Shown here: positions 1,607 to 25,355 of the stretch, in pieces | Layout: each line of letters starts with the position of its first letter | How positions within the stretch are numbered: the stretch's first letter is position 1 | Source of the DNA: a virus | Taxonomy: Duplodnaviria > Heunggongvirae > Uroviricota > Caudoviricetes | Reading direction: 5' to 3' (one strand) | Virus record (IMG/VR): IMGVR_UViG_2671180460_000013 | DNA length: 26,013 nt | Program-made: the position numbers and the translations under genes | Notes under the pieces: generated by a model | What the model was told of the DNA's origin: nothing | What the model saw: the letters and a program-made list of their open reading frames with translations, nothing else | Database searches by the model: none

Positions 1607-3304
1607 TCAGGCGATAATGTCGCCGTATTTTTCGCGCAGGCTCGTCGCCTGCAGGGCATCTGCGGCAAGTTCGCTGCTGTTCATTGGTGTGCCAGTGTTG
1701 CTATGGGTGTGGTTTGCTGTATGTGTGGCCAGTAATTGAATCAGATCCAGAATATCGATCAGCAACGTCAGCAGGTTAAGCCCTGACTTTTCCCGCGAGC
1801 CGCCGCGACCAATAAATACTGTCGGAGCGGTAAACTCCAGACCGCCGTCCGCTCTGCATGTTCTGCGGCCTCCCACGTTTTCGGTGAGGTCATGCTCAAT
1901 GGTGGATATCGCCCCTTTGAGTTGAGTCAGCAAATCCTGCGCTACCATCTGGATATGCTCACCGGCTGCGATCGCATAATTGCCGGTAGTAAGGTGTTCT
2001 GTCTGGCCTGTCATCAGTTTGCTGGTACCAAGAACACTGGTTATGTCGTTTGCCTGGACTGTTGTTGTTCTGGTTGTTGTTGTGCGTTCTTCCTGATCGC
2101 TGTTAATGGTTCGCCTGGCTGAATGCTCCCTGATTTGCTGGTCGGTTTCTCTGTGCCAGCTTCCGTCAGTCGTGACGCGCTGAAACACTTCTGCGCGCTG
2201 TTGCTGCAGCTGTTCGCCGGGCTTTACATCAGGCAGGTTATGGCCTGCGGGTAAGATTTGCCTGATGACAGGTTTATCCGGTCGTCCTTCAATGTTGGAT
2301 ATTTCCACGATGGTGCCAGCCGGCGGGTAGGCAAAACATCCCGCCTCGCTACCAGCCATCGGGACGGGGAGTGGTACTGCCGGATAAACAGGCGTATCGC
2401 TTTTATCGTTGCCGTTCTCATCAAGCAGTTGCACATCGACGGCGTAGCGTGGGCGGAAACTGTCGGCAACATCGCCCAGGGTGACGGATTCCGTTGGGGC
2501 AATGACGCGCGCCAGCCTGGTATGTAGAGTACCGCTGGCCAGTTCCGGGAACTGTGTTTCCATCTGTCTGCGTAATGGTGATTTGGAAACAGGGCTACCC
2601 GTGGTGGTAAGGCGTTCCCATGTCAGGGTCATTTTCTCGTTGTTGAGGGCTACACGGGTAATGCGCCCGGCTGGAAGGTTCACGCCCGGTCGCACAGTTT
2701 CCATAAACATGATGTCGATGCTGTTTCCGCCGCTTTGCCCGAGTGTGTACTGTTGCGGAATATCCGGCATGGTAATACTGGCAAACCGTGAGTCCGATGC
2801 GCTTCCCACAAATACGGAACCGTCCGGCATTGGATGCCAGACGTAATCGCTGATACTGAATGCTCGCCCCAGCTGGCTAAGCAGTTGTGTTCCGCTGCCG
2901 CTGTGGGTGATGTAAGGTGTCGGAGTACCGACGTAATCCGCGTCTGGCGTGATGAAAACGATGCCGCTTTGTTTACCCAGACTATCGAGTACATCCCGTA
3001 ACGTTGGATGTTGCATGGAGCAGGGGAAATCAAAATCCAGCACGGCAGCTGCTTCACGGATAAAAAGGCGGCGTGAGCCATTTTCGGCGGGTTGATCGCG
3101 TTCAATGTAGCCGGAGAAATAGCGCCATGCCTCACCATTACGGCCGAGATCAATTTGTATCATTGCGCCGGCAAGACTTTTTTTGGGTGGCAGATTATTA
3201 ACAGAAATGAAGCCACGACCGGCAGCATTCAGGGTAAGAACAAGGCTGATATCGGCAATTTCCGCCAGCTCGCCATTAATCATACAGCGTTGGATTAATT
3301 TCAT
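1607..3304 (-). CDS. baseplate central spike protein (gpV / gp5-like OB-fold and His-rich tip) with a ~300-aa N-terminal extension, possibly a hub-spike fusion
   Basis: 565 aa. Motif AGTIVEISNIEGRPDKPVI resembles the OB-fold signature of P2 gpV / VgrG. C-terminal THTANHTHSNTG resembles the HxH metal-binding apex of spike proteins. ATGA overlap with the upstream gene; AGGAGG RBS. Confidence 0.5.
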   Translation of the reverse strand: MKLIQRCMINGELAEIADISLVLTLNAAGRGFISVNNLPPKKSLAGAMIQIDLGRNGEAWRYFSGYIERDQPAENGSRRLFIREAAAVLDFDFPCSMQHPTLRDVLDSLGKQSGIVFITPDADYVGTPTPYITHSGSGTQLLSQLGRAFSISDYVWHPMPDGSVFVGSASDSRFASITMPDIPQQYTLGQSGGNSIDIMFMETVRPGVNLPAGRITRVALNNEKMTLTWERLTTTGSPVSKSPLRRQMETQFPELASGTLHTRLARVIAPTESVTLGDVADSFRPRYAVDVQLLDENGNDKSDTPVYPAVPLPVPMAGSEAGCFAYPPAGTIVEISNIEGRPDKPVIRQILPAGHNLPDVKPGEQLQQQRAEVFQRVTTDGSWHRETDQQIREHSARRTINSDQEERTTTTRTTTVQANDITSVLGTSKLMTGQTEHLTTGNYAIAAGEHIQMVAQDLLTQLKGAISTIEHDLTENVGGRRTCRADGGLEFTAPTVFIGRGGSREKSGLNLLTLLIDILDLIQLLATHTANHTHSNTGTPMNSSELAADALQATSLREKYGDIIA

Positions 3305-3876: not shown

Positions 3877-4570
3877 GTAGTGCTTCCCTTAGTGATGAGA
3901 GATTATCGCCGACGAACAGCATCACAGCTGTAAAAACCCACTCGGGGTGTGGGATGTTTTTTTGTATCAGCACTGCGGCCTGGCTAAGGGCTCCCTTGTA
4001 GCAAAAGCGCCACACCGGGCAAAATTTTTGCCGGAGTGCTGCCTGCTGATCAGCGATTTCCTGTAGTGCTTTATCTCTCGCATTCATGAACTGACGCAAC
4101 GATGATGACAATGTTTCCGGTGATGTGACGGCAGGAGTGGCTGCCTGTGCAATGGTTGCTGCCAGTGACATGCTGCGAGTGGTCTGTGTCGATAGCATTA
4201 TCGGTTCCGGAAGTGATGTTAGCGGTCTGGCGGGGATTTGCATTCTGCTGATGGCCAGTGAAAGCTGGCTGGAGATCATGCGGGACATTCGTCCCACCTC
4301 TGGCAACGGAAATGCGCCTGAAAATTGCCTGGCGAGTGATAGAAACTCGTCGGCAGACGGGGCGCAAAATAACAGCGCCACAACGTCTTTTTCTGTGTTT
4401 TCTGTCAGATAAGGTAAAAGCGCGGATACAGCATTATCCGGGCTGAGGTAACGCCCTGATGGTGTAATGTTTCCCGTATTTTCTGACCATGGGTGGAGGC
4501 AAACCATTGAACAGGTAATAGCTATGGGGGCTGGTCGCAAAACAGAGCGTATCCATGTTGAATTGTTCAT
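3848..4570 (-). CDS. hypothetical protein (240 aa), Ser/Thr/Ala-rich with a Cys-containing C-terminus; possible accessory or chaperone of tail fiber 2
   Basis: ATG at 4568-4570 with AGGAAG RBS, 24 nt after the fiber-2 stop. Lacks the conserved C-terminal motif of classical tail fiber assembly proteins. Confidence 0.4.
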   Translation of the reverse strand: MNNSTWIRSVLRPAPIAITCSMVCLHPWSENTGNITPSGRYLSPDNAVSALLPYLTENTEKDVVALLFCAPSADEFLSLARQFSGAFPLPEVGRMSRMISSQLSLAISRMQIPARPLTSLPEPIMLSTQTTRSMSLAATIAQAATPAVTSPETLSSSLRQFMNARDKALQEIADQQAALRQKFCPVWRFCYKGALSQAAVLIQKNIPHPEWVFTAVMLFVGDNLSSLREALHDPDDCPCA

Positions 4571-12648: not shown

Positions 12649-13129
12649 TACGATCCCTTAAAAGCACGGATAATGCCGTTATTGACGGCGATGCTCATAT
12701 TTTCCCAGTAGTGGTTATCCAGCCAGACGGCGGCAGCCAGTGACTGCGGCGAGTCATCCTCGCCGGGCAGCCAGTGGCGGCGCAGAATCAGCATCCGGGT
12801 AAGGTCATTGCGATCAATGGCCCCCAGATGGCTTTTTATTTTTTTACGGTGATTTCCACTTCCGGCACAAACTCGTTATTCACGGCTGTTGCCAGGCTGG
12901 CCGGCATTCCTGGTTTTTCCAGCAACTGGTTCAGCAGATCGCGGTGCTCTTTAATCACGATACGGCGCAGGTAGTTTTTCAGCGGCGCGATTTTGTTATC
13001 CGGCATGAAGTCGTTCTGCAGGTCGTTGTAGGCTTTTACGGTCGGGATAAACGTCAGTTCATGCTCGCCGACCTGTAAAGTGATGGTGTTCTCTGCGGTA
13101 GTCTGGGTGTTTTTATCGTTCATCATCAT
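12648..13129 (-). CDS. tail assembly chaperone frameshift fusion product (E+E' / G-T analogue) made by a programmed -1 frameshift
   Basis: The -1 frame entered at the slippery site stays open for 63 codons (hand-translated, no stops) and ends at a TAA overlapping the tape-measure ATG (TAATG at 12646-12650). Confidence 0.6.
12836..13129 (-). CDS. tail assembly chaperone (P2 gpE / lambda gpG analogue)
   Basis: 97-aa ORF directly upstream of the tape measure gene, ending ...VKK-TAA on an A-rich slippery run. Three consecutive ATGs at 13121-13129; the third has the best RBS spacing. Confidence 0.7.
   Translation of the reverse strand: MMMNDKNTQTTAENTITLQVGEHELTFIPTVKAYNDLQNDFMPDNKIAPLKNYLRRIVIKEHRDLLNQLLEKPGMPASLATAVNNEFVPEVEITVKK
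12839..12845 (-). other. slippery heptamer A AAA AAA for the -1 ribosomal frameshift
   Basis: Transcript reads ACC GTA AAA AAA TAA; the X XXY YYZ heptamer sits at the last sense codons of the chaperone gene. Confidence 0.6.
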
Positions 13130-13155
13130 TTCCTTTTAAAGTCAAGAATAAGAGG

Positions 13156-13187
13156 GCTTAATAAGCCTGCAGGAAGGCTTATTAAGC
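13156..13187 (-). terminator. stem-loop (12-bp perfect inverted repeat) between the endolysin and the tail chaperone; candidate attenuator or partial terminator
   Basis: GCTTAATAAGCC, 8-nt loop, GGCTTATTAAGC, 7 nt after the endolysin stop. Followed on the transcript by a moderately U-rich tract (CCUCUUAUUCUU). Confidence 0.4.
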
Positions 13188-13193
13188 GTAAAA

Positions 13194-17350: not shown

Positions 17351-18061
17351 TTACGTGCCCTGCAACGCGCGCAGTCTTGCGGCAATGCGCTGGCGCAGGG
17401 TTTTCACCTGAATTTTTGGATGCAGCCAGGCAGCCTGTTCCAGACACTGGTCGGCCTGTTGCAGTCTCTCCGGATCGTTAATTGCACTGGCCAGCGGTTT
17501 ACCGTCATCGCCGCGCAGCAGCAGGACGCCTGCAAAGCGCCAGTAGCGGGCAGCAAGGCGTTCATTCACGCGCCATTTGTCACGGATTTTTTCAAACACC
17601 TGCTGAAAATATGGCGCGATACTGTTCCCACGTTCAGCTTCGGTTTCTGCCCATTCAAGAATGAAATGGGCCACAAACGTTGGCAGCTCGCTTTTGAAGT
17701 TCTCCGGCGTCTTTTGCCCCTGCTCAATGGCAATGTCAGCCCACCGCAGCGCCATCTCAAACTGCCCGGTATCGAACAGCCAGATGATGCAGTACACCAG
17801 AATGGGATTCTGATAGACGCGTTCCCCCTCCAGATAAGCCTGTGCGTGTGGCAGCCAGCGGGGCAGCAGCGTGTTCCGTTTGAATTCCAGCTTGTCAGAC
17901 AGCAGCTCCATGTTGTGCAGTTGTCTGATGTCGTTATCCAGTGCCAGCAGCTTAATGTGCTGACTCTCTGTGCTGATGGCGCTCCCGTCCGTTCTGGTCA
18001 TGAGCGCCGCACGGCGCTCATCCATCTGTCGGGCACGTTGTCGCTGCATTGGCGTTGGCAT
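17351..18061 (-). CDS. M: terminase small subunit, P2 gpM-like
   Basis: 236 aa; position between N and L as in P2; GGAG RBS. Confidence 0.8.
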   Translation of the reverse strand: MPTPMQRQRARQMDERRAALMTRTDGSAISTESQHIKLLALDNDIRQLHNMELLSDKLEFKRNTLLPRWLPHAQAYLEGERVYQNPILVYCIIWLFDTGQFEMALRWADIAIEQGQKTPENFKSELPTFVAHFILEWAETEAERGNSIAPYFQQVFEKIRDKWRVNERLAARYWRFAGVLLLRGDDGKPLASAINDPERLQQADQCLEQAAWLHPKIQVKTLRQRIAARLRALQGT

Positions 18062-19106: not shown

Positions 19107-20003
19107 TTACACCAGGTTAAAAGTTTCGCCACCGGCCGGATTGTTGCCCGGCAGCTTCGTGGCGTCCTTGCTGAGTTCAGCAAATGCGGTTTCCATACTG
19201 GTAACCTTCTCCGCGATGGCGTTCACTGTGGAGAACAGCTTTTCCCCCTGCTCAGTGGTCAGCGTGAAGGTTTTGTCGTCCTTGTTGTTCTGTTCTGCGT
19301 TGTTCTGCCCCTGATCGCCGGTGCTGCCTTCCGGCTTGTTATCACCGGTATCTTTCGGGGCATCCTTCGCGCTGAACTGCGCGACGTTTTCTTCCAGCTT
19401 GTCCAGGCGTTCGCTGGTTTTATTAATAGCGCCCATTAACTGGCTGAACTGTTCTTCGTTCATGGCTTGGTAGATTCCCTGTTGGTGGTTGTCAGATGAG
19501 AAGAAGCGGGAGAAGAAGTTGCGCTTGGCCAGCTCATCATCAGACTGCAGCGTAAAATTCAGCGCCTCTGCGTTGCCCATATGGATGGTTTCCCCCATGG
19601 AAAACTGCAGGCGTGTGGTGTTAACGCTGGCCGGGGTATCCGTCACGGCGATACCTGACACAAAGAATTTGCCCGTGCCCAGATAGTTTTCCCGCACCTC
19701 AATGGAGGTAAAAAGCTTCTGCCCGGCCTTATTGGCTTCAATCAGGAAGCGATTTGGGATCAGGCGTGCTTTAAGCTGCACCTTGTCACCAAATTTTTCG
19801 ACTTTCAGGGCATCAACAAGGCCGTAGTTATTGGTGAAGGCACGCCATCCGGAATCGGCGTGATATGGCCAGAGCATGGCGGCTCGCTCGTCCGGGTTGT
19901 AAACCTCGGCGGCATCTGTCAGCCACTTCGGATCAATTTCCCGACCGTCGATGGTGGGGCCTGATGTGGCAACCACAACCCAGTCTGTTTTCTGCTTCGT
20001 CAT
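19107..20003 (-). CDS. O: capsid scaffolding protein, P2 gpO-like
   Basis: 298 aa, first gene of the minus-strand head operon, divergent from P. Charged, low-complexity C-terminal half typical of scaffolds. Confidence 0.8.
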   Translation of the reverse strand: MTKQKTDWVVVATSGPTIDGREIDPKWLTDAAEVYNPDERAAMLWPYHADSGWRAFTNNYGLVDALKVEKFGDKVQLKARLIPNRFLIEANKAGQKLFTSIEVRENYLGTGKFFVSGIAVTDTPASVNTTRLQFSMGETIHMGNAEALNFTLQSDDELAKRNFFSRFFSSDNHQQGIYQAMNEEQFSQLMGAINKTSERLDKLEENVAQFSAKDAPKDTGDNKPEGSTGDQGQNNAEQNNKDDKTFTLTTEQGEKLFSTVNAIAEKVTSMETAFAELSKDATKLPGNNPAGGETFNLV

Positions 20004-20086
20004 CTGAATTAATCCGCTGATAAAAATTAAACTGGCGTTATTTAACGGAGAAATAAAAATGTCGTCATCTGATTAATTTCCGGTAC

Positions 20087-20112
20087 TTTCGGATATGCGT
20101 ATATATCCGAAA
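20087..20112. promoter_or_regulatory. 10-bp-arm dyad TTTCGGATAT-N6-ATATCCGAAA centred midway between the divergent O and P start codons; candidate shared late-promoter regulator site
   Basis: Perfect inverted repeat read directly from the sequence. Centre lies about 96-98 nt from each start codon. No P2-style TGT-N12-ACA site is present in this spacer. Confidence 0.4.
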
Positions 20113-20197
20113 AATACCGAAAAGCGATATTCGTTTTTAAAAAAGCCTTTGCTGAAAATGCATAAATTAAAATTGCATCAGCAGGTGAGGTTTATTT

Positions 20198-21985
20198 ATG
20201 GCGTATTCTGATGAGGTGATTGCTGCTGCAAAATCGCTCTATCTGAAAAGACACACACCAAAAGAAATACAAAAGAAGCTCGGACTGAACAGCCCGCGAA
20301 TTGTTTATTACTGGGCGACAAAGTTTGAGTGGTACACACAGCTTAATGCTGAAGGCGTGGAGGATGTTATCGCTCGTCGTCTCGCTGTACTGGCGGAGCG
20401 TGATCATAAAACGCCGGAAGAGCACGATGAACTTGATCGCCTGATTGGTCATCACGTCAAACTGATGTCGGTCAGGAACAAGCACACGGAACGCATGGCC
20501 GAGATTGAACGAATGGGAGCGGATATTCCCCAGTCTGGTCGTTATGGAAAAGAAGAACGCGGAGAAAAAGGTGCAGGTAAGAAAGAGCGCCCCCGCAAAG
20601 CTAATGACGTTTCCGGACTGACTGCTGAAAGTTTTGAGCCGTTTACGAAAAAGTTGTTTGCTTATCAGTTGCATCTGCGTGAAAACAAATTCCGCCGTGT
20701 ACGCAACCTGCTTAAATCCCGCCAGATTGGGGCGACGTATTACTTCGCGTTTGAGGCATTTGAAGATGCAGTATTAACCGGCGACACACAGATATTTTTA
20801 TCGGCATCAAAACGTCAGGCCGAAGTGTTCCGTACTTATATTGTAAAAATTGCACAAACAGAGTTTGGCATTCCCATTAAAGGCAATCCGGTTAAGTTAA
20901 GTAATCTGGCTGAACTGTATTTTCTGGCGACCAACAGTAACACAGCGCAGTCAAACAGCGGTCACCTGTATATTGATGAATACCTGTGGATCCCCGGTTT
21001 TCGCCGTCTCAATGAAGTGGCATCAGGGATGGCCACCCATAAACACTGGCGCATTACCTATTTCTCCACGCCGTCAGCCAAAACACATCAGGGCTACCCG
21101 TTCTGGTCTGGCGATGAATGGCGCAAAGGTGACCCGAAACGAAAAGGGATTGAGTTCCCGTCCTTTGATGAGCTGCGCGATGGCGGGCGCGAATGTCCGG
21201 ATGGTCAGTGGCGCTATGTGGTTACGCTGGAAGATGCTATTGCCGGCGGCTTTAACCTTGCTGACATCAACGAGTTGCGCGAGCGGTACAACGAAACAGC
21301 GTTCAATATGTTGTTTATGTGCGTGTTTGTGGATGACAAAGAGAGCGTCTTTAAATTCGATGACCTCGTGCGCTGTGGCGTTGATGTCAGTACGTGGGAG
21401 GATTTTCACCCGGAAGATGCCATGCCATTTGGAAACCGTGAAGTGTGGGGTGGCTTTGACCCTGCACGCTCCGGCGATAACGCCACGTTTGTGGTGCTGG
21501 CACCGCCGCTGGTTGCGGCAGAACGATTCCGCGTGCTGGAAAAACACCACTGGCGCAGCATGTCATTCCAGTTTATGGCAGAGCGTATCCGCAGCATTAA
21601 GGCGCGCTATAACATGACGTTTATCGGCATTGACGTCACCGGCCTTGGCTACGGTGTCTTTGAGCTGGTTCAGGGATTTGCCCGCCGTGAAACAGTGGCC
21701 ATTCATTACAGCGTTGAATCCAAAAACCGCCTGGTGATGAAGATGCTGGATCTGATTTACGCCAACCGTATTGAGTGGGATGAGGAGGCAACAGATATTC
21801 CGGCATCATTTTTGGCCATTCGTCAGGAATCCACCAATAGTGGCAATAAAGTTACTTTTACTGCTGAACGTAGCGAAGAAACCGGGCACGCTGACATCTT
21901 CTTTGCCATAGCTCATGCCGCAAGTAATGAACCCCTGAACTATAAGCACAAGCGCAAATCAACATGGATCCTGTCAGATGAGTAA
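20198..21985 (+). CDS. P: terminase large (ATPase) subunit, P2 gpP-like
   Basis: 595 aa. ATG with AGGTGAGG RBS. Walker-B-like LYIDEY. Divergent from O and upstream of Q, as in P2. Confidence 0.9.
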   Translation: MAYSDEVIAAAKSLYLKRHTPKEIQKKLGLNSPRIVYYWATKFEWYTQLNAEGVEDVIARRLAVLAERDHKTPEEHDELDRLIGHHVKLMSVRNKHTERMAEIERMGADIPQSGRYGKEERGEKGAGKKERPRKANDVSGLTAESFEPFTKKLFAYQLHLRENKFRRVRNLLKSRQIGATYYFAFEAFEDAVLTGDTQIFLSASKRQAEVFRTYIVKIAQTEFGIPIKGNPVKLSNLAELYFLATNSNTAQSNSGHLYIDEYLWIPGFRRLNEVASGMATHKHWRITYFSTPSAKTHQGYPFWSGDEWRKGDPKRKGIEFPSFDELRDGGRECPDGQWRYVVTLEDAIAGGFNLADINELRERYNETAFNMLFMCVFVDDKESVFKFDDLVRCGVDVSTWEDFHPEDAMPFGNREVWGGFDPARSGDNATFVVLAPPLVAAERFRVLEKHHWRSMSFQFMAERIRSIKARYNMTFIGIDVTGLGYGVFELVQGFARRETVAIHYSVESKNRLVMKMLDLIYANRIEWDEEATDIPASFLAIRQESTNSGNKVTFTAERSEETGHADIFFAIAHAASNEPLNYKHKRKSTWILSDE

Positions 21986-23012
21986 AAAGAAAAAATCCCC
22001 CGTGTTACACGATGGCGTGGCAAAAAAAACAGCCAGCAAAATGACTTTTATTGAATTTGGTGACCCGGAACCGGTCGCTGCATGGGGCTGTTATTACGGC
22101 TCGCTCTGGGATGGCTATAACGGCTGGTACACGCCGCCCATTGAGCGCATGGATCTCGCCATGTTGTCCAATATCGCACCGTATCACGGCGCGGTATTGC
22201 GTGCGCGCGTCAATATGATCATGCAGGGTTTTCGGGGTGGCGGTGGTATGACACACGCCGCCATGGCGGCAGCAGTAACCAATCTGCTGATATTCGGGGA
22301 TATGGGGTTGCTTAAAGTGCGCAATGGCTTCGGTCGAGTGGTGCGCCTGCATACGTTACCTTCTCTGTACCTGCGGCGTAACAACGAGGGTGGCACGGTG
22401 ATTGTGCAGGCGGCACTGGAAGATCTCGTTTACCCGCCAGGCGAAGTGGTGTTCGTGGCCGTTTATGACCCGCAACAGCAGGTTTACGGTGTCCCGGATT
22501 ATATTCACGGGATGGAATCCGCCATGCTGAATGTGGATGCCACCCGCTTTCGCCGCAAGTATTACAAGAACGGCGCACATCTTGGTTATATCCTGTATTC
22601 CAGTGACCCGGACATGGATCCCGAGCTCGAGGCGGAATTCCGTAAAAAGATAGAGGCGTCAAAAGGGGCGGGCAATTTTAAATCCATGTTTATCAATATA
22701 CCGGGCGGAGACAAAGAAGGCGTTAAGGTGATCCCTATCGGGGATTCAGGTACAAAAGATGAGTTCCTGAATATAAAAACCATCAGTGCCCAGGATCAGC
22801 TTGTTGCGCACCGTTTCCCACCCGGACTTGCCGGCATCATTCCCGCAAATACGGCCGGGCTTGGTGACCCACTGAAATCCCGCGAGGCATATTACAGGGA
22901 TGAGGTTATCCCGATGCGCCGCCTGATTATGGAGGGGATCAACAGCGACCCGGATATCAGACGACTGGGGGAGGTGAAATTTATTCTTGATTTTGATGAA
23001 CCCATGGAGTGA
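21978..23012 (+). CDS. Q: portal protein, P2 gpQ-like
   Basis: 344 aa, the same length as P2 gpQ as recalled. Its ATG overlaps the last codons of P (GATGAGTAA). Confidence 0.85.
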   Translation: MSKKKKSPVLHDGVAKKTASKMTFIEFGDPEPVAAWGCYYGSLWDGYNGWYTPPIERMDLAMLSNIAPYHGAVLRARVNMIMQGFRGGGGMTHAAMAAAVTNLLIFGDMGLLKVRNGFGRVVRLHTLPSLYLRRNNEGGTVIVQAALEDLVYPPGEVVFVAVYDPQQQVYGVPDYIHGMESAMLNVDATRFRRKYYKNGAHLGYILYSSDPDMDPELEAEFRKKIEASKGAGNFKSMFINIPGGDKEGVKVIPIGDSGTKDEFLNIKTISAQDQLVAHRFPPGLAGIIPANTAGLGDPLKSREAYYRDEVIPMRRLIMEGINSDPDIRRLGEVKFILDFDEPME

Positions 23013-23077: not shown

Positions 23078-23335
23078 ATGCGCAGACAGAAAGCGCGATG
23101 TCATTGCTGCGGTGCACATGCAGTGATTGAGAAAACAGCCTGGAAAACCGATCAGTTTGCTGATGTGTATTACCGTTGCACCCGTCTCGAGTGCGGACAT
23201 ACCTGGGTGATGAATCTGACCTACTCGCACACACTGGTGCCCAGCGGGCTGGAGAATGGTGTGTTAAAGCTGTTGATTGAGCGGATGCGTCCGGAAGAAA
23301 AACAAATGGCTCTGGAGTTGTTGCAGGCCGGATAG
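23078..23335 (+). CDS. ogr: Ogr/Delta-family zinc-finger late transcription activator (putative)
   Basis: Internal ATG at 23078 with GGGAGG RBS gives 85 aa. CHCC ... CTRLEC gives the CxxC ... Cx4C spacing of P2 Ogr. Followed by a strong terminator. Confidence 0.7.
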   Translation: MRRQKARCHCCGAHAVIEKTAWKTDQFADVYYRCTRLECGHTWVMNLTYSHTLVPSGLENGVLKLLIERMRPEEKQMALELLQAG

Positions 23336-23355: not shown

Positions 23356-23406
23356 AACCCGGAACGGGCGCACAAAGAATTTGCGCACCCGTTCCGGGTT
23401 TTCTTA
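23356..23406 (+). terminator. intrinsic terminator between convergent ogr and the Rrf2/par operon (possibly bidirectional)
   Basis: 13-bp perfect stem AACCCGGAACGGG / CCCGTTCCGGGTT around a 19-nt partly self-complementary loop, followed by TTTTCTTATTC on the plus strand. Confidence 0.6.
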
Positions 23407-23763
23407 TTCAATGGCAGACAACTGATAATTTGTGTCTTCCTGCAGGCTGGTTAAAGAAATATTATCCAGTGCAGCCAGAATAACGTGCTGTGTATATAAT
23501 CCGGAACATTTCATTGCCCGGACAATATCACCAACACTGTAATTTTCTTTTGTCGGGATATATCCACCACCCGGGCCGCGTGTGGCTTTTACCAGGCTAC
23601 TTTCCCGTAAATATCTGAATATTTGCTCCAGATATGACAGTGAAACGGTTTCTTTGCTTAATTGCCGGAGCGAGATTGGCTTTCCGGTGTACTGTTTCAC
23701 AAATTTAATCATTACCATAACTGCAACTGATGCACGCTGGCTTCCGGAATTATCTTTCATCAT
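23404..23763 (-). CDS. Rrf2-family transcriptional regulator (short; lacks the three-Cys cluster ligand set)
   Basis: Start at the ATG doublet 23758-23763 with GGAAG RBS. ISLRQLSKETVSLSYLEQIFRYLRESSLVKATRGPGGGY matches the Rrf2 HTH / GGGY signature. Only one Cys in the C-terminal half. Confidence 0.7.
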   Translation of the reverse strand: MMKDNSGSQRASVAVMVMIKFVKQYTGKPISLRQLSKETVSLSYLEQIFRYLRESSLVKATRGPGGGYIPTKENYSVGDIVRAMKCSGLYTQHVILAALDNISLTSLQEDTNYQLSAIE

Positions 23764-24076: not shown

Positions 24077-24391
24077 TCACTTCGGGAAAAACGCCTGAAT
24101 ATTTTTTTTCACCTGCTGCATATGGGTGGCGCTGTCTGCTGCTGGTTGCGCCGGTTTTTCAGGCTGTACTGGTAGCGGTGGCATCCGTATTTCGTCTTCT
24201 GACCATTCTGCCAGCGAATACGCCAACGCGGGGTGGCGTTTTATAAGAGCCAGTCCGGCCAGAAAAGCCGCGCGTTGTGCGCGGCTGCGTTCGGAGGCTG
24301 GCAGGCTGTCGAGGTAACTGCACGCCTCCCGTTCGCTCTTGACGACGGCGGGCTTCAGATAGAAACTTATCCGTCTGGTTGGTGTCGTCAT
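24077..24391 (-). CDS. parR: ParR-like centromere-binding protein (ribbon-helix-helix type, type II partition)
   Basis: Internal ATG at 24389-24391 with an AAGGAG RBS inside the parM 3' end. RISFYLKP...LDSLPASERSRAQRAAFLAGLAL parallels recalled R1 ParR (IAFKLNPD...LDSIPQGERSRLNRAALTAGLAL). Confidence 0.75.
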   Translation of the reverse strand: MTTPTRRISFYLKPAVVKSEREACSYLDSLPASERSRAQRAAFLAGLALIKRHPALAYSLAEWSEDEIRMPPLPVQPEKPAQPAADSATHMQQVKKNIQAFFPK

Positions 24392-24395
24392 TGAT

Positions 24396-25355
24396 TTACT
24401 CCTTGTCCATTGCGTACAGCCCATTAACCAGAGCAAACTGTGGCACCCCGTCCGCGATGAAAGTCGCATTAACTCCGCAGGCTTCGCGGATAGCGGGTGC
24501 CACAATCTCCGCTCCTCCACCTACAACCATCACCCGCCCGTAACCCGAAAAACCCGCCAGCGCGCGGATCACGCGTTGTTTCAGTGTTTCTTCCTTTTCA
24601 CGAATAACAGCCATCAGGCTGGCGTAATGTGCGTTATTGTGGATGTGCTGGCGCAGCCAGGCTTCATCGTGGCGATGTTCGATAATGGTATTAGCGATGT
24701 GGTGACTGGTACGCATACCGTTGGTGGCCATCACCGACAGCACGGCATCGGCCATCAGGGAAACGCCTACGTGTGGATCGCAAAACACCTGGCTGATACC
24801 TGCCAGTTGCCCCTGAACCTTTGCCACATCCAGCGTGGTTCCGCCCAAATCCACAATCAGCAGGGATTCAAACGGACTCATGTCAGCCAGTGCTTTAAAG
24901 CCTGCCGGAATGGATTCAGGCATAACCCGCACGTTACGGATAGTGAATGCCTCACCGTTCTGGTACTCCACCGGGCGCATGACGTTCGCTTTTTTGCGGT
25001 TGATGTTGGCCATGTCCGGCTGTGCGTTTGTGTCGAAATACTCGCTCAGTGGCAGGGTGACAACCACATCCACCTCCTGTGGCGTGATGCCTGATTTGAC
25101 CAGCGCGTGATGAATGGCAATTACATTCACATCGCTGTACTGGTATTGCGTGTCGGTCGTCTGGACAAAGCGATCGCTGACCGGATCAAAACCATAGCGC
25201 ACGCCATCAAGCATGTAGTTCGCGGGCTGCGTGCCACCGAACGGCGCAGACCATTCCGACTTGAAGCTGTTCGGGCTGATGGCGTTGCGGCGTTCGCCGT
25301 TCTCAGTCCATGCCAGCTTGATGTTGGTGGAGCCGTCATCGATACAAATTTTCAT
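24396..25355 (-). CDS. parM: ParM / StbA-family actin-like segregation ATPase
   Basis: 319 aa. MKICIDDGSTNIKLAW, ISPNSFK, YSDVNV..HHAL, VMPESIPAG, DLGGTTLD and VVGGGAE blocks align by eye with recalled R1 ParM along most of the protein. Confidence 0.9.
   Translation of the reverse strand: MKICIDDGSTNIKLAWTENGERRNAISPNSFKSEWSAPFGGTQPANYMLDGVRYGFDPVSDRFVQTTDTQYQYSDVNVIAIHHALVKSGITPQEVDVVVTLPLSEYFDTNAQPDMANINRKKANVMRPVEYQNGEAFTIRNVRVMPESIPAGFKALADMSPFESLLIVDLGGTTLDVAKVQGQLAGISQVFCDPHVGVSLMADAVLSVMATNGMRTSHHIANTIIEHRHDEAWLRQHIHNNAHYASLMAVIREKEETLKQRVIRALAGFSGYGRVMVVGGGAEIVAPAIREACGVNATFIADGVPQFALVNGLYAMDKE

Follow-up and report, generated by a model that had tools for sequence, protein, structure and literature searches.

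The stretch of DNA analysed here, which we call the window, spans 26,013 nucleotides and is, by its Pfam domains and gene order, a prophage of the P2 family. Its morphogenesis cluster is of the P2 type (GPO scaffold, P2-type capsid, terminase, portal and Ogr_Delta), and both Pfam and RefSeq annotation place the terminase-portal unit and the scaffold-capsid unit in divergent orientation, with an inverted repeat, or dyad, between them. Gene O is the first of a leftward late cluster that continues with N, M, L and the tail and lysis genes, and gene P heads a rightward P-Q-ogr unit. The genes that frame the dyad and the remaining members of the rightward unit are:

19107-20003, minus strand: gene O, capsid scaffold (Pfam Phage_GPO, E=1.6e-36; RefSeq annotation of a near-identical prophage; gap analysis)
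20198-21985, plus strand: gene P, terminase large subunit (Pfam Terminase_6N, Terminase_6C and Terminase_5; RefSeq annotation of the near-identical prophage)
21978-23012, plus strand: gene Q, portal (Pfam Phage_portal)
23078-23335, plus strand: Ogr/Delta-family zinc-finger gene (Pfam Ogr_Delta; PHROG 603, transcription regulation; position kept in relatives)

A prophage 98% identical to this one adjoins pheA in E. coli MB06234, and prophages of the same type are present in 42 of 5426 complete E. coli genomes. No megablast match to the region was obtained among deposited phage genomes, and the best match for the terminase is that of Yersinia phage vB_YenM_324 (60%), followed by the ESSI-2 group. 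In E. coli ETEC1703 (NZ_CP122923.1), the terminase gene of the same prophage is broken by an IS1A element.

Genes O and P are separated by a spacer of 194 bp (20004-20197) with a GC content of 32%, as against 52% in the window. Within it lies the perfect dyad TTTCGGATAT-N6-ATATCCGAAA, whose centre (20099.5) is 96.5 nt away from the ATG of O (20003, minus strand) and 98.5 nt away from the ATG of P (20198). A preliminary description of this DNA had reported just such a repeat, nearly equidistant from both starts in an AT-rich spacer, and the sequence is as claimed. Its parts are:

20087-20096, unstranded: inner left arm TTTCGGATAT, invariant in 26 close relatives, with the core half-site TTCGGATA at 20088-20095
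20097-20102, unstranded: central 6 bp, gcgtat, all 6 columns of which are variable among close relatives
20103-20112, unstranded: inner right arm ATATCCGAAA, with the core half-site TATCCGAA at 20104-20111

Only 1.3% of dinucleotide shuffles of the spacer contain a perfect inverted repeat of this kind (arms ≥10 bp, loop ≤12), and the full dyad pattern, with up to three mismatches allowed, occurs once in the window and in none of 100 shuffles. The region also folds as single-stranded DNA with an energy of -12.4 kcal/mol (z=-4.3), a value that none of 200 shuffles equalled. Another perfect inverted repeat with 10-bp arms, ATGAGCGCCG-tg-CGGCGCTCAT, with a loop of 2 nt, is found at window positions 18000-18021, in the 5′ part of gene M (terminase small subunit).

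The closest relatives, a set of 26 from IMG/VR, RefSeq and E. albertii that comprises 18 distinct spacers, show how unevenly this region has changed. None of the 20 arm columns is variable among them, as compared with all 6 of the centre and 49 of the 94 other columns within 60 bp (Fisher p ~5e-6, with no correction for phylogeny). Seven variants of the central 6 bp were seen (GCGCAT, GCGTAT, ACGCAT, GTGCAT, GTGTAT, GCACAT and CGGGCA), and such a combination of invariant arms and a free centre is the usual mark of a site recognised by a symmetric protein. A chance origin of the dyad is excluded and the element is almost certainly functional. The suggestion that the O and P operons diverge from a regulatory dyad at the middle of their spacer is supported.

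Beyond this set, O-P spacers were extracted from 75 viral-contig loci found with a terminase query. A dyad is kept at the same place in all lineages of 54-100% TerL identity, and its core, TTCGG-N14-CCGAA, is exact in most of them; one ESSI-2-like sub-lineage carries a degenerate copy with 2-3 mismatches, and L031 and L032 show a spacing of N24 instead of N14. The half-site consensus across dyad-bearing lineages is TTCGGNTA, and relatives with as little as ~43% TerL identity still have TTCGG-N14-CCGAA where their terminase and scaffold genes diverge. When 2.9 million viral contigs were scanned for TTCGGATA-N8-TATCCGAA, 81 loci were obtained, 24 of which were already-known relatives (23 from a scan with the exact dyad plus one earlier locus). 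Among the 57 new ones, 43 adjoin a P2-type terminase gene (43-84% identity), a scaffold gene or both, in most cases with the dyad directly between the two genes. The other 14, which have no P or O gene, are close to a rough chance estimate of ~16, and two of them (L101 and L108) were seen to lie in unrelated contexts; satellites or other elements sharing the site were for this reason discarded. In its exact form, the 20-base dyad is restricted to the lineage of this prophage, with 23 viral contigs carrying one copy each, and in the representative genomes of 185,579 species it was found only in the E. albertii copy of the same prophage and in one Firmicute MAG, in an unrelated context. One viral contig of 67.9 kb (IMGVR_UViG_2684623125_000003; L115 and L146) carries an O-P control region twice, both times with a TTCGGATA-N8-TATCCGAA dyad and with differing centres, and is probably a tandem of two related prophages.

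One central palindrome per phage, of other sequence, is also seen among P2-like phages that are more distant. In GC-rich distant relatives it is GCAATCGTAGAGAC-g-GTCTCTACGATTGC, and relatives of 36-38% TerL identity, which may be K139-like, have other central dyads such as TTCTATAT-N5-ATATAGAA. No description of the late operators of these 36-38% relatives was found in the searchable literature.

When the lineages were aligned without gaps and anchored at the dyad centre, conserved blocks became visible at fixed distances from it. Two of them flank the inner arms, and four more correspond to the hexamers of putative promoters on either side:

20077-20086, unstranded: outer left half-site TTTCCGGTAC, with its core TTCCG 18-22 bp left of the centre and 10 bp from the inner arm
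20114-20123, unstranded: outer right half-site ATACCGAAAA, with its core CCGAA 18-22 bp right of the centre
20063-20068, minus strand: predicted pO -35-like hexamer ATGACG, 32-37 bp outward and 17 bp from the -10-like hexamer
20040-20045, minus strand: predicted pO -10-like hexamer TTAAAT, 55-60 bp outward
20131-20136, plus strand: predicted pP -35-position hexamer TCGTTT, a poor consensus match
20154-20159, plus strand: predicted pP -10-like hexamer GAAAAT, 55-60 bp outward

On the left, TTcnG at -22 to -18 is kept across 26 non-redundant lineages, as is CCGAa at +18 to +22 across lineages on the right, and the two outer half-sites pair with each other in the single-strand DNA fold. With its N24 spacing, the perfect palindrome of L031 and L032 consists of the inner left half-site and the outer right position, a pairing which argues that the outer half-sites are functional. 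As far as can be judged from these patterns, the functional unit is larger than the dyad with 10-bp arms: a symmetric, putative array of four half-sites covering ~45 bp (~20078-20121), which may be read as TTCCG-N5-TTCGG-N14-CCGAA-N5-CCGAA.

A simple promoter scan of the spacer found no consensus sigma-70 promoter, and by our own count the predicted pO and pP hexamers match the consensus at no more than 8 of 12 positions, which fits promoters that depend on an activator. On the O side, the plus-strand GTCAT at the -35 position of pO is invariant across lineages of 66-100% TerL identity, and the -10-like hexamers of the clean-dyad lineages, all at the same offset, are TTAAAT, TTTACT, TACACT and AATACT. 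On the P side, TCG at +33 to +35 is invariant in the seven lineages compared (66-100% TerL identity) and differs in more distant relatives; the -10-like hexamers are GAAAAT, AATAAT, GAGAAT, AAAAAT, CAAAAT, TACACT and CATAAT, and they begin at an offset of exactly 55 in 77% of the 26 non-redundant lineages, against a background of 2.7%. In this way, two weak sigma-70-type promoters would be mirrored about the array, pO as ATGACG-N17-TTAAAT and pP as TCGTTT-N17-GAAAAT, with predicted starts near 20033 (minus strand) and 20166 (plus strand). With the -10-like hexamers 55-60 bp out on both sides, as they are in every clean-dyad lineage, the dyad centre is predicted at about -66.5 for both promoters.

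Relatives with spacers of 220 or 230 bp keep this hexamer offset and not the distance to the ATG, the extra DNA being located downstream of the hexamer, so that the meaningful symmetry is that of the promoters and not that of the start codons. Six of these relatives (L005, L007, L009 and L012, with 230-bp spacers, and L010 and L013, with 220-bp spacers) have a different and longer P leader (corresponding to ~20160-20197 of the window), which contains the 10-bp unit TTACGGAACG, single or as a tandem pair, ahead of AACCGGAAAA; these elements resemble operator half-sites and are found downstream of the predicted -10 hexamer of pP. At the other extreme, in Yersinia phage vB_YenM_324 (L102, 10209-10215) and in L033 and L037-L039, the -10-like CATAAT ends 6-7 nt before the ATG of the terminase gene, with no Shine-Dalgarno visible before that ATG, and either a leaderless P mRNA or a misannotated start may account for this. 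We also considered a mini-ORF of 5 codons at 20059-20076 (ATG TCG TCA TCT GAT TAA), which has GGAG 8 nt upstream and opens with 15 nt similar to the beginning of gene P. Close relatives have ACG or AAG in place of its ATG, an absence of conservation which suggests that it is probably untranslated, and its inner GTCAT fits the -35 position of pO instead.

The organization just described has a close precedent. In the P2 record (NC_001895), a single "activator binding site; pO, pP promoters" is annotated at 3057-3087, between the mapped starts of P (3016, minus strand) and O (3127, plus strand), and its core TGT-N12-CCA is centred at 3071.5, that is, at -55.5 from both mapped starts. The preliminary description had regarded a central dyad for both promoters as a different solution from the one adopted by P2, a view that has to be abandoned in light of this shared pO/pP site. 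For Stenotrophomonas phage Smp131, the promoters PP' and PO' have been given the same coordinates (4381-4398), meaning that one shared site was proposed there as well (PMC3931495), although the Smp131 site is a prediction and, unlike the site here, resembles TGT-N12-ACA and coexists with further late promoters. Because a single shared site is found in P2 and proposed in Smp131, the architecture in our prophage is canonical, and what differs is the sequence and probably the distance.

P2 and the phage studied here share a single dyad-symmetric site between divergent P-Q and O-N-M-L units, equidistant from starts that are mapped in P2 and predicted here, together with an activator of the Ogr/Delta family and promoters that are weak in P2 and predicted to be so here. 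The P2 core, however, is TGT-N12-(A/C)CA at -55.5, whereas the one found here is TTCGGATA-N8-TATCCGAA, flanked at a further 10 bp by outer half-sites, and its predicted centre at ~-66.5 would be one helical turn further upstream than the -55.5 of P2. P2 has, besides, two more late promoters (pV and pF), each with its own site, in contrast to the absence of a second site here, and its Ogr lacks the conserved C-terminal extension of the activator encoded in our window. Judging by sequence, then, the element is the presumptive counterpart of the shared pO/pP activator site of P2 in a divergent, unstudied branch of the family, and the apparent novelties with respect to P2 are the recognition sequence, the extra half-sites and, probably, a promoter distance longer by one turn.

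The activators B of phage 186, Delta of P4, Pag of PSP3 and Delta of phiR73 belong to this same family, and an upstream dyad element is present at the late promoters on which they act. All of them share the TGT-N12-ACA specificity, which is also the late-promoter consensus quoted for P2 (PMC3931495). The preliminary description had noted that P2-type TGT-N12-ACA sites are absent from the spacer, and we confirmed that 20004-20197 contains neither an exact match nor one with a single mismatch, where ~1.2 one-mismatch matches would be expected by chance; elsewhere in the window there are six exact matches, which is about chance (an estimated ~6 per 26 kb).

The closest cultured phage, Yersinia phage vB_YenM_324 (Peduoviridae, Tresduoquattuorvirus; 60% TerL identity), agrees with our prophage in its P-Q-regulator and O-to-tail gene order. 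Its O-P spacer holds a perfect TTCGG-N14-CCGAA with flanking half-sites, and the -10-like CATAAT lies at an offset of 55-60, as here, but its inner bases differ and its P leader is much shorter. Our literature search found neither an annotation nor a study of the vB_YenM_324 site, and the searchable full-text literature yielded no description of the late promoters or operator of this phage group.

As for the protein that may bind the dyad, the product of 23078-23335 is 85 aa long and matches Pfam Ogr_Delta with E=9.4e-13 (48.3 bits, for a cut-off of 26.3). Wherever the locus of a dyad-bearing relative is long enough, an Ogr homolog (38-100% identity) comes directly after the portal gene, a co-occurrence of dyad and ogr that follows phylogeny and is no proof of interaction. 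These two observations, the Pfam match and the conserved place after the portal gene, make this Ogr-like protein the best candidate binder, as the preliminary description had guessed. An ogr homolog between the portal and replication genes has been described in Vibrio phage K139 and Salinivibrio phage Smhb1 (PMC8537503), a layout shared by the window, whereas ogr of P2 adjoins int. An alignment reveals a Cx2C...Cx4C motif common to P2 Ogr and the Ogr-like proteins of this group, which have in addition a conserved ECGHT(F/W)V...HTL(S/V)PS segment and a C-terminal helix, both lacking in P2 Ogr and making a divergent specificity plausible. P2 Ogr gave no tblastn match with the activator here at E<0.01, and a search by sequence of solved structures found no structure of the Ogr family and only a weak zinc-ribbon similarity to RPB9/TFIIS.

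The explanation that we favour, and hold with good confidence, is that the dyad is the operator for the prophage's own Ogr/Delta late-gene activator (23078-23335), a putative site lying back-to-back between pO and pP and serving both. This explanation is based on sequence, conservation, geometry, ogr synteny and the precedent of P2, and from them we infer binding by the Ogr-like protein, the transcription starts and the activation mechanism. If the analogy with P2 Ogr holds, RNA polymerase would be recruited by the activator once it is bound. In P2, this recruitment by Ogr involves the alpha subunit of the polymerase. Among the points against the model, the predicted position of -66.5 differs from the established -55.5 of P2, and the hexamer at the -35 position of pP is a very poor match.

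Inverted repeats are also what regulators of the Rrf2 type typically bind, and a gene of that winged-helix family (23404-23763) adjoins ogr. Since a near-identical prophage encodes several other small regulators as well, the dyad could be taken for the operator of some other phage protein (Rrf2, MarR-like, immunity repressor or Cox-like) that represses or times the late promoters. This we consider quite unlikely. Our tracking of regulators in relatives, which covered the fetched flanks, outside of which the repressor, Cox-like and MarR-like genes lie, detected the Rrf2 gene in only 12 close relatives, and both 10-bp arms are unchanged in many that lack it, including some that reach well past ogr (L010, L012, L013, L016, L019, L021, L029 and L030), for which reason Rrf2 was dropped as a candidate. 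Moreover, distant relatives such as vB_YenM_324 keep TTCGG-N14-CCGAA with a different early-region content, and the dyad is upstream of, not over, both predicted core promoters, a location that suits an activator better than a repressor.

The size and symmetry of the site, typical of those bound by dimeric host factors, and its AT-rich surroundings would also be compatible with a host transcription factor or nucleoid protein coupling late expression to host physiology. We find this very unlikely, given that the dyad tracks the phage lineage, with an Ogr homolog retained in every lineage; that its exact 20 bases are virtually absent from the species' representative genomes other than in the E. 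albertii prophage copy; and that the 16-base core falls in O-P spacers at the 43 loci mentioned above, with the rest near chance. We know of no E. coli factor with this consensus. The strong single-stranded DNA fold, on the other hand, invites the thought that the palindrome acts through its structure and is no protein operator: it could extrude a cruciform in the DNA, form a hairpin or terminator in RNA, or serve as a signal for packaging or replication. Such a role seems to us extremely unlikely: no T-run follows the stem on either strand and the terminator scan was negative at the dyad, the best Rfam match (E=0.28) was irrelevant and no credible one was found, and the dyad would not be transcribed at all, because both predicted promoters fire away from it. 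Relatives, furthermore, keep the arm sequence itself with no compensatory changes, and the cos site of P2 is located beyond Q and not in the O-P spacer.

An operator for the Ogr-like activator raises the question of how the remaining late genes would be controlled. Within the window, no second copy of the dyad exists with up to three mismatches to the full pattern, and TTCGG-N14-CCGAA, with up to two mismatches, occurs in the window and in the whole prophage at chance frequency and in no intergenic gap. The motif does not recur at several operons as it does in the P2/186/P4 class: the window, the whole prophage and the related contigs have one site apiece, and with one site per genome the argument from a same motif at several co-regulated promoters is unavailable. 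In the preliminary description, uniqueness to this spacer had been named as part of what would count against a regulatory role; the dyad is indeed unique, but its function is not refuted thereby, since uniqueness more likely reflects two late operons instead of the four of P2 and is not evidence against function. A gap analysis of the late cluster, from O to the tail-fibre genes, found no AT-rich promoter-like gap, which means that one site can serve all the late genes; the late cluster of vB_YenM_324 is equally compact. A single site would probably switch on all head, lysis and tail genes.

Two hairpins in the window are of interest for the ends and the interior of these transcription units. 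At 13124-13193, on the coding (minus) strand, a perfect hairpin with 13-bp arms, CTTAATAAGCCT-tcctgc-AGGCTTATTAAG, followed by a T-rich stretch, lies in a gap of 70 bp that separates the M15 peptidase gene from the next one, which encodes the tail assembly chaperone. The long late operon may be attenuated internally at this hairpin; in P2, an attenuator is annotated downstream of the lysis genes. At 23356-23401, where the ogr and Rrf2 genes converge, there is a long GC-rich hairpin, with TTTCTTATTC after it, that probably terminates transcription in both directions. On the rightward side, ogr begins 65 bp after Q with no terminator between them, and in the absence of a terminator along P-Q-ogr, pP may also drive ogr, in a positive feedback.

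No new regulatory principle is revealed by this analysis: the layout of P2, with a single shared site, is conserved across the family, and the recognition sequence is what changes from clade to clade. Its value resides in a precise and testable map of operator and promoters for a widespread and unstudied branch of P2-like prophages, the core motif being present in dozens of viral contigs. A bolder proposal, to which we give somewhat less than even credence, is that the present Ogr subfamily, whose protein has 85 aa and a conserved helix at the C-terminus, constitutes a second specificity class that reads TTCnG-N5-TTCGG-N14-CCGAA-N5-CCGAA, probably as a dimer of dimers and one helical turn further upstream than P2 Ogr, switching the entire late regulon as two divergent operons. 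If this were so, the lack of any likeness to TGT-N12-ACA would make the switch orthogonal to P2/186 prophages residing in the same host, and P4-type satellites, dependent as they are on TGT-N12-ACA, would be blind to it. A separate specificity would then bear on cross-activation between prophages and on their exploitation by such satellites, and could provide an orthogonal activator/promoter pair for engineering.

Other genes of note lie near the ends of the window. At 24077-25355 (minus strand), this integrated P2-like prophage carries genes for ParM and a plasmid-stability protein (Plasmid_stab_B) beside its replication endonuclease gene, a pair that hints at a plasmid-like maintenance option for the prophage. 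At the opposite end (1-1606), past a non-coding gap of 599 bp at the tail-fibre end, there are two genes that are probably cargo, one for a toxin of the YafO family and one with a SufA-like annotation.
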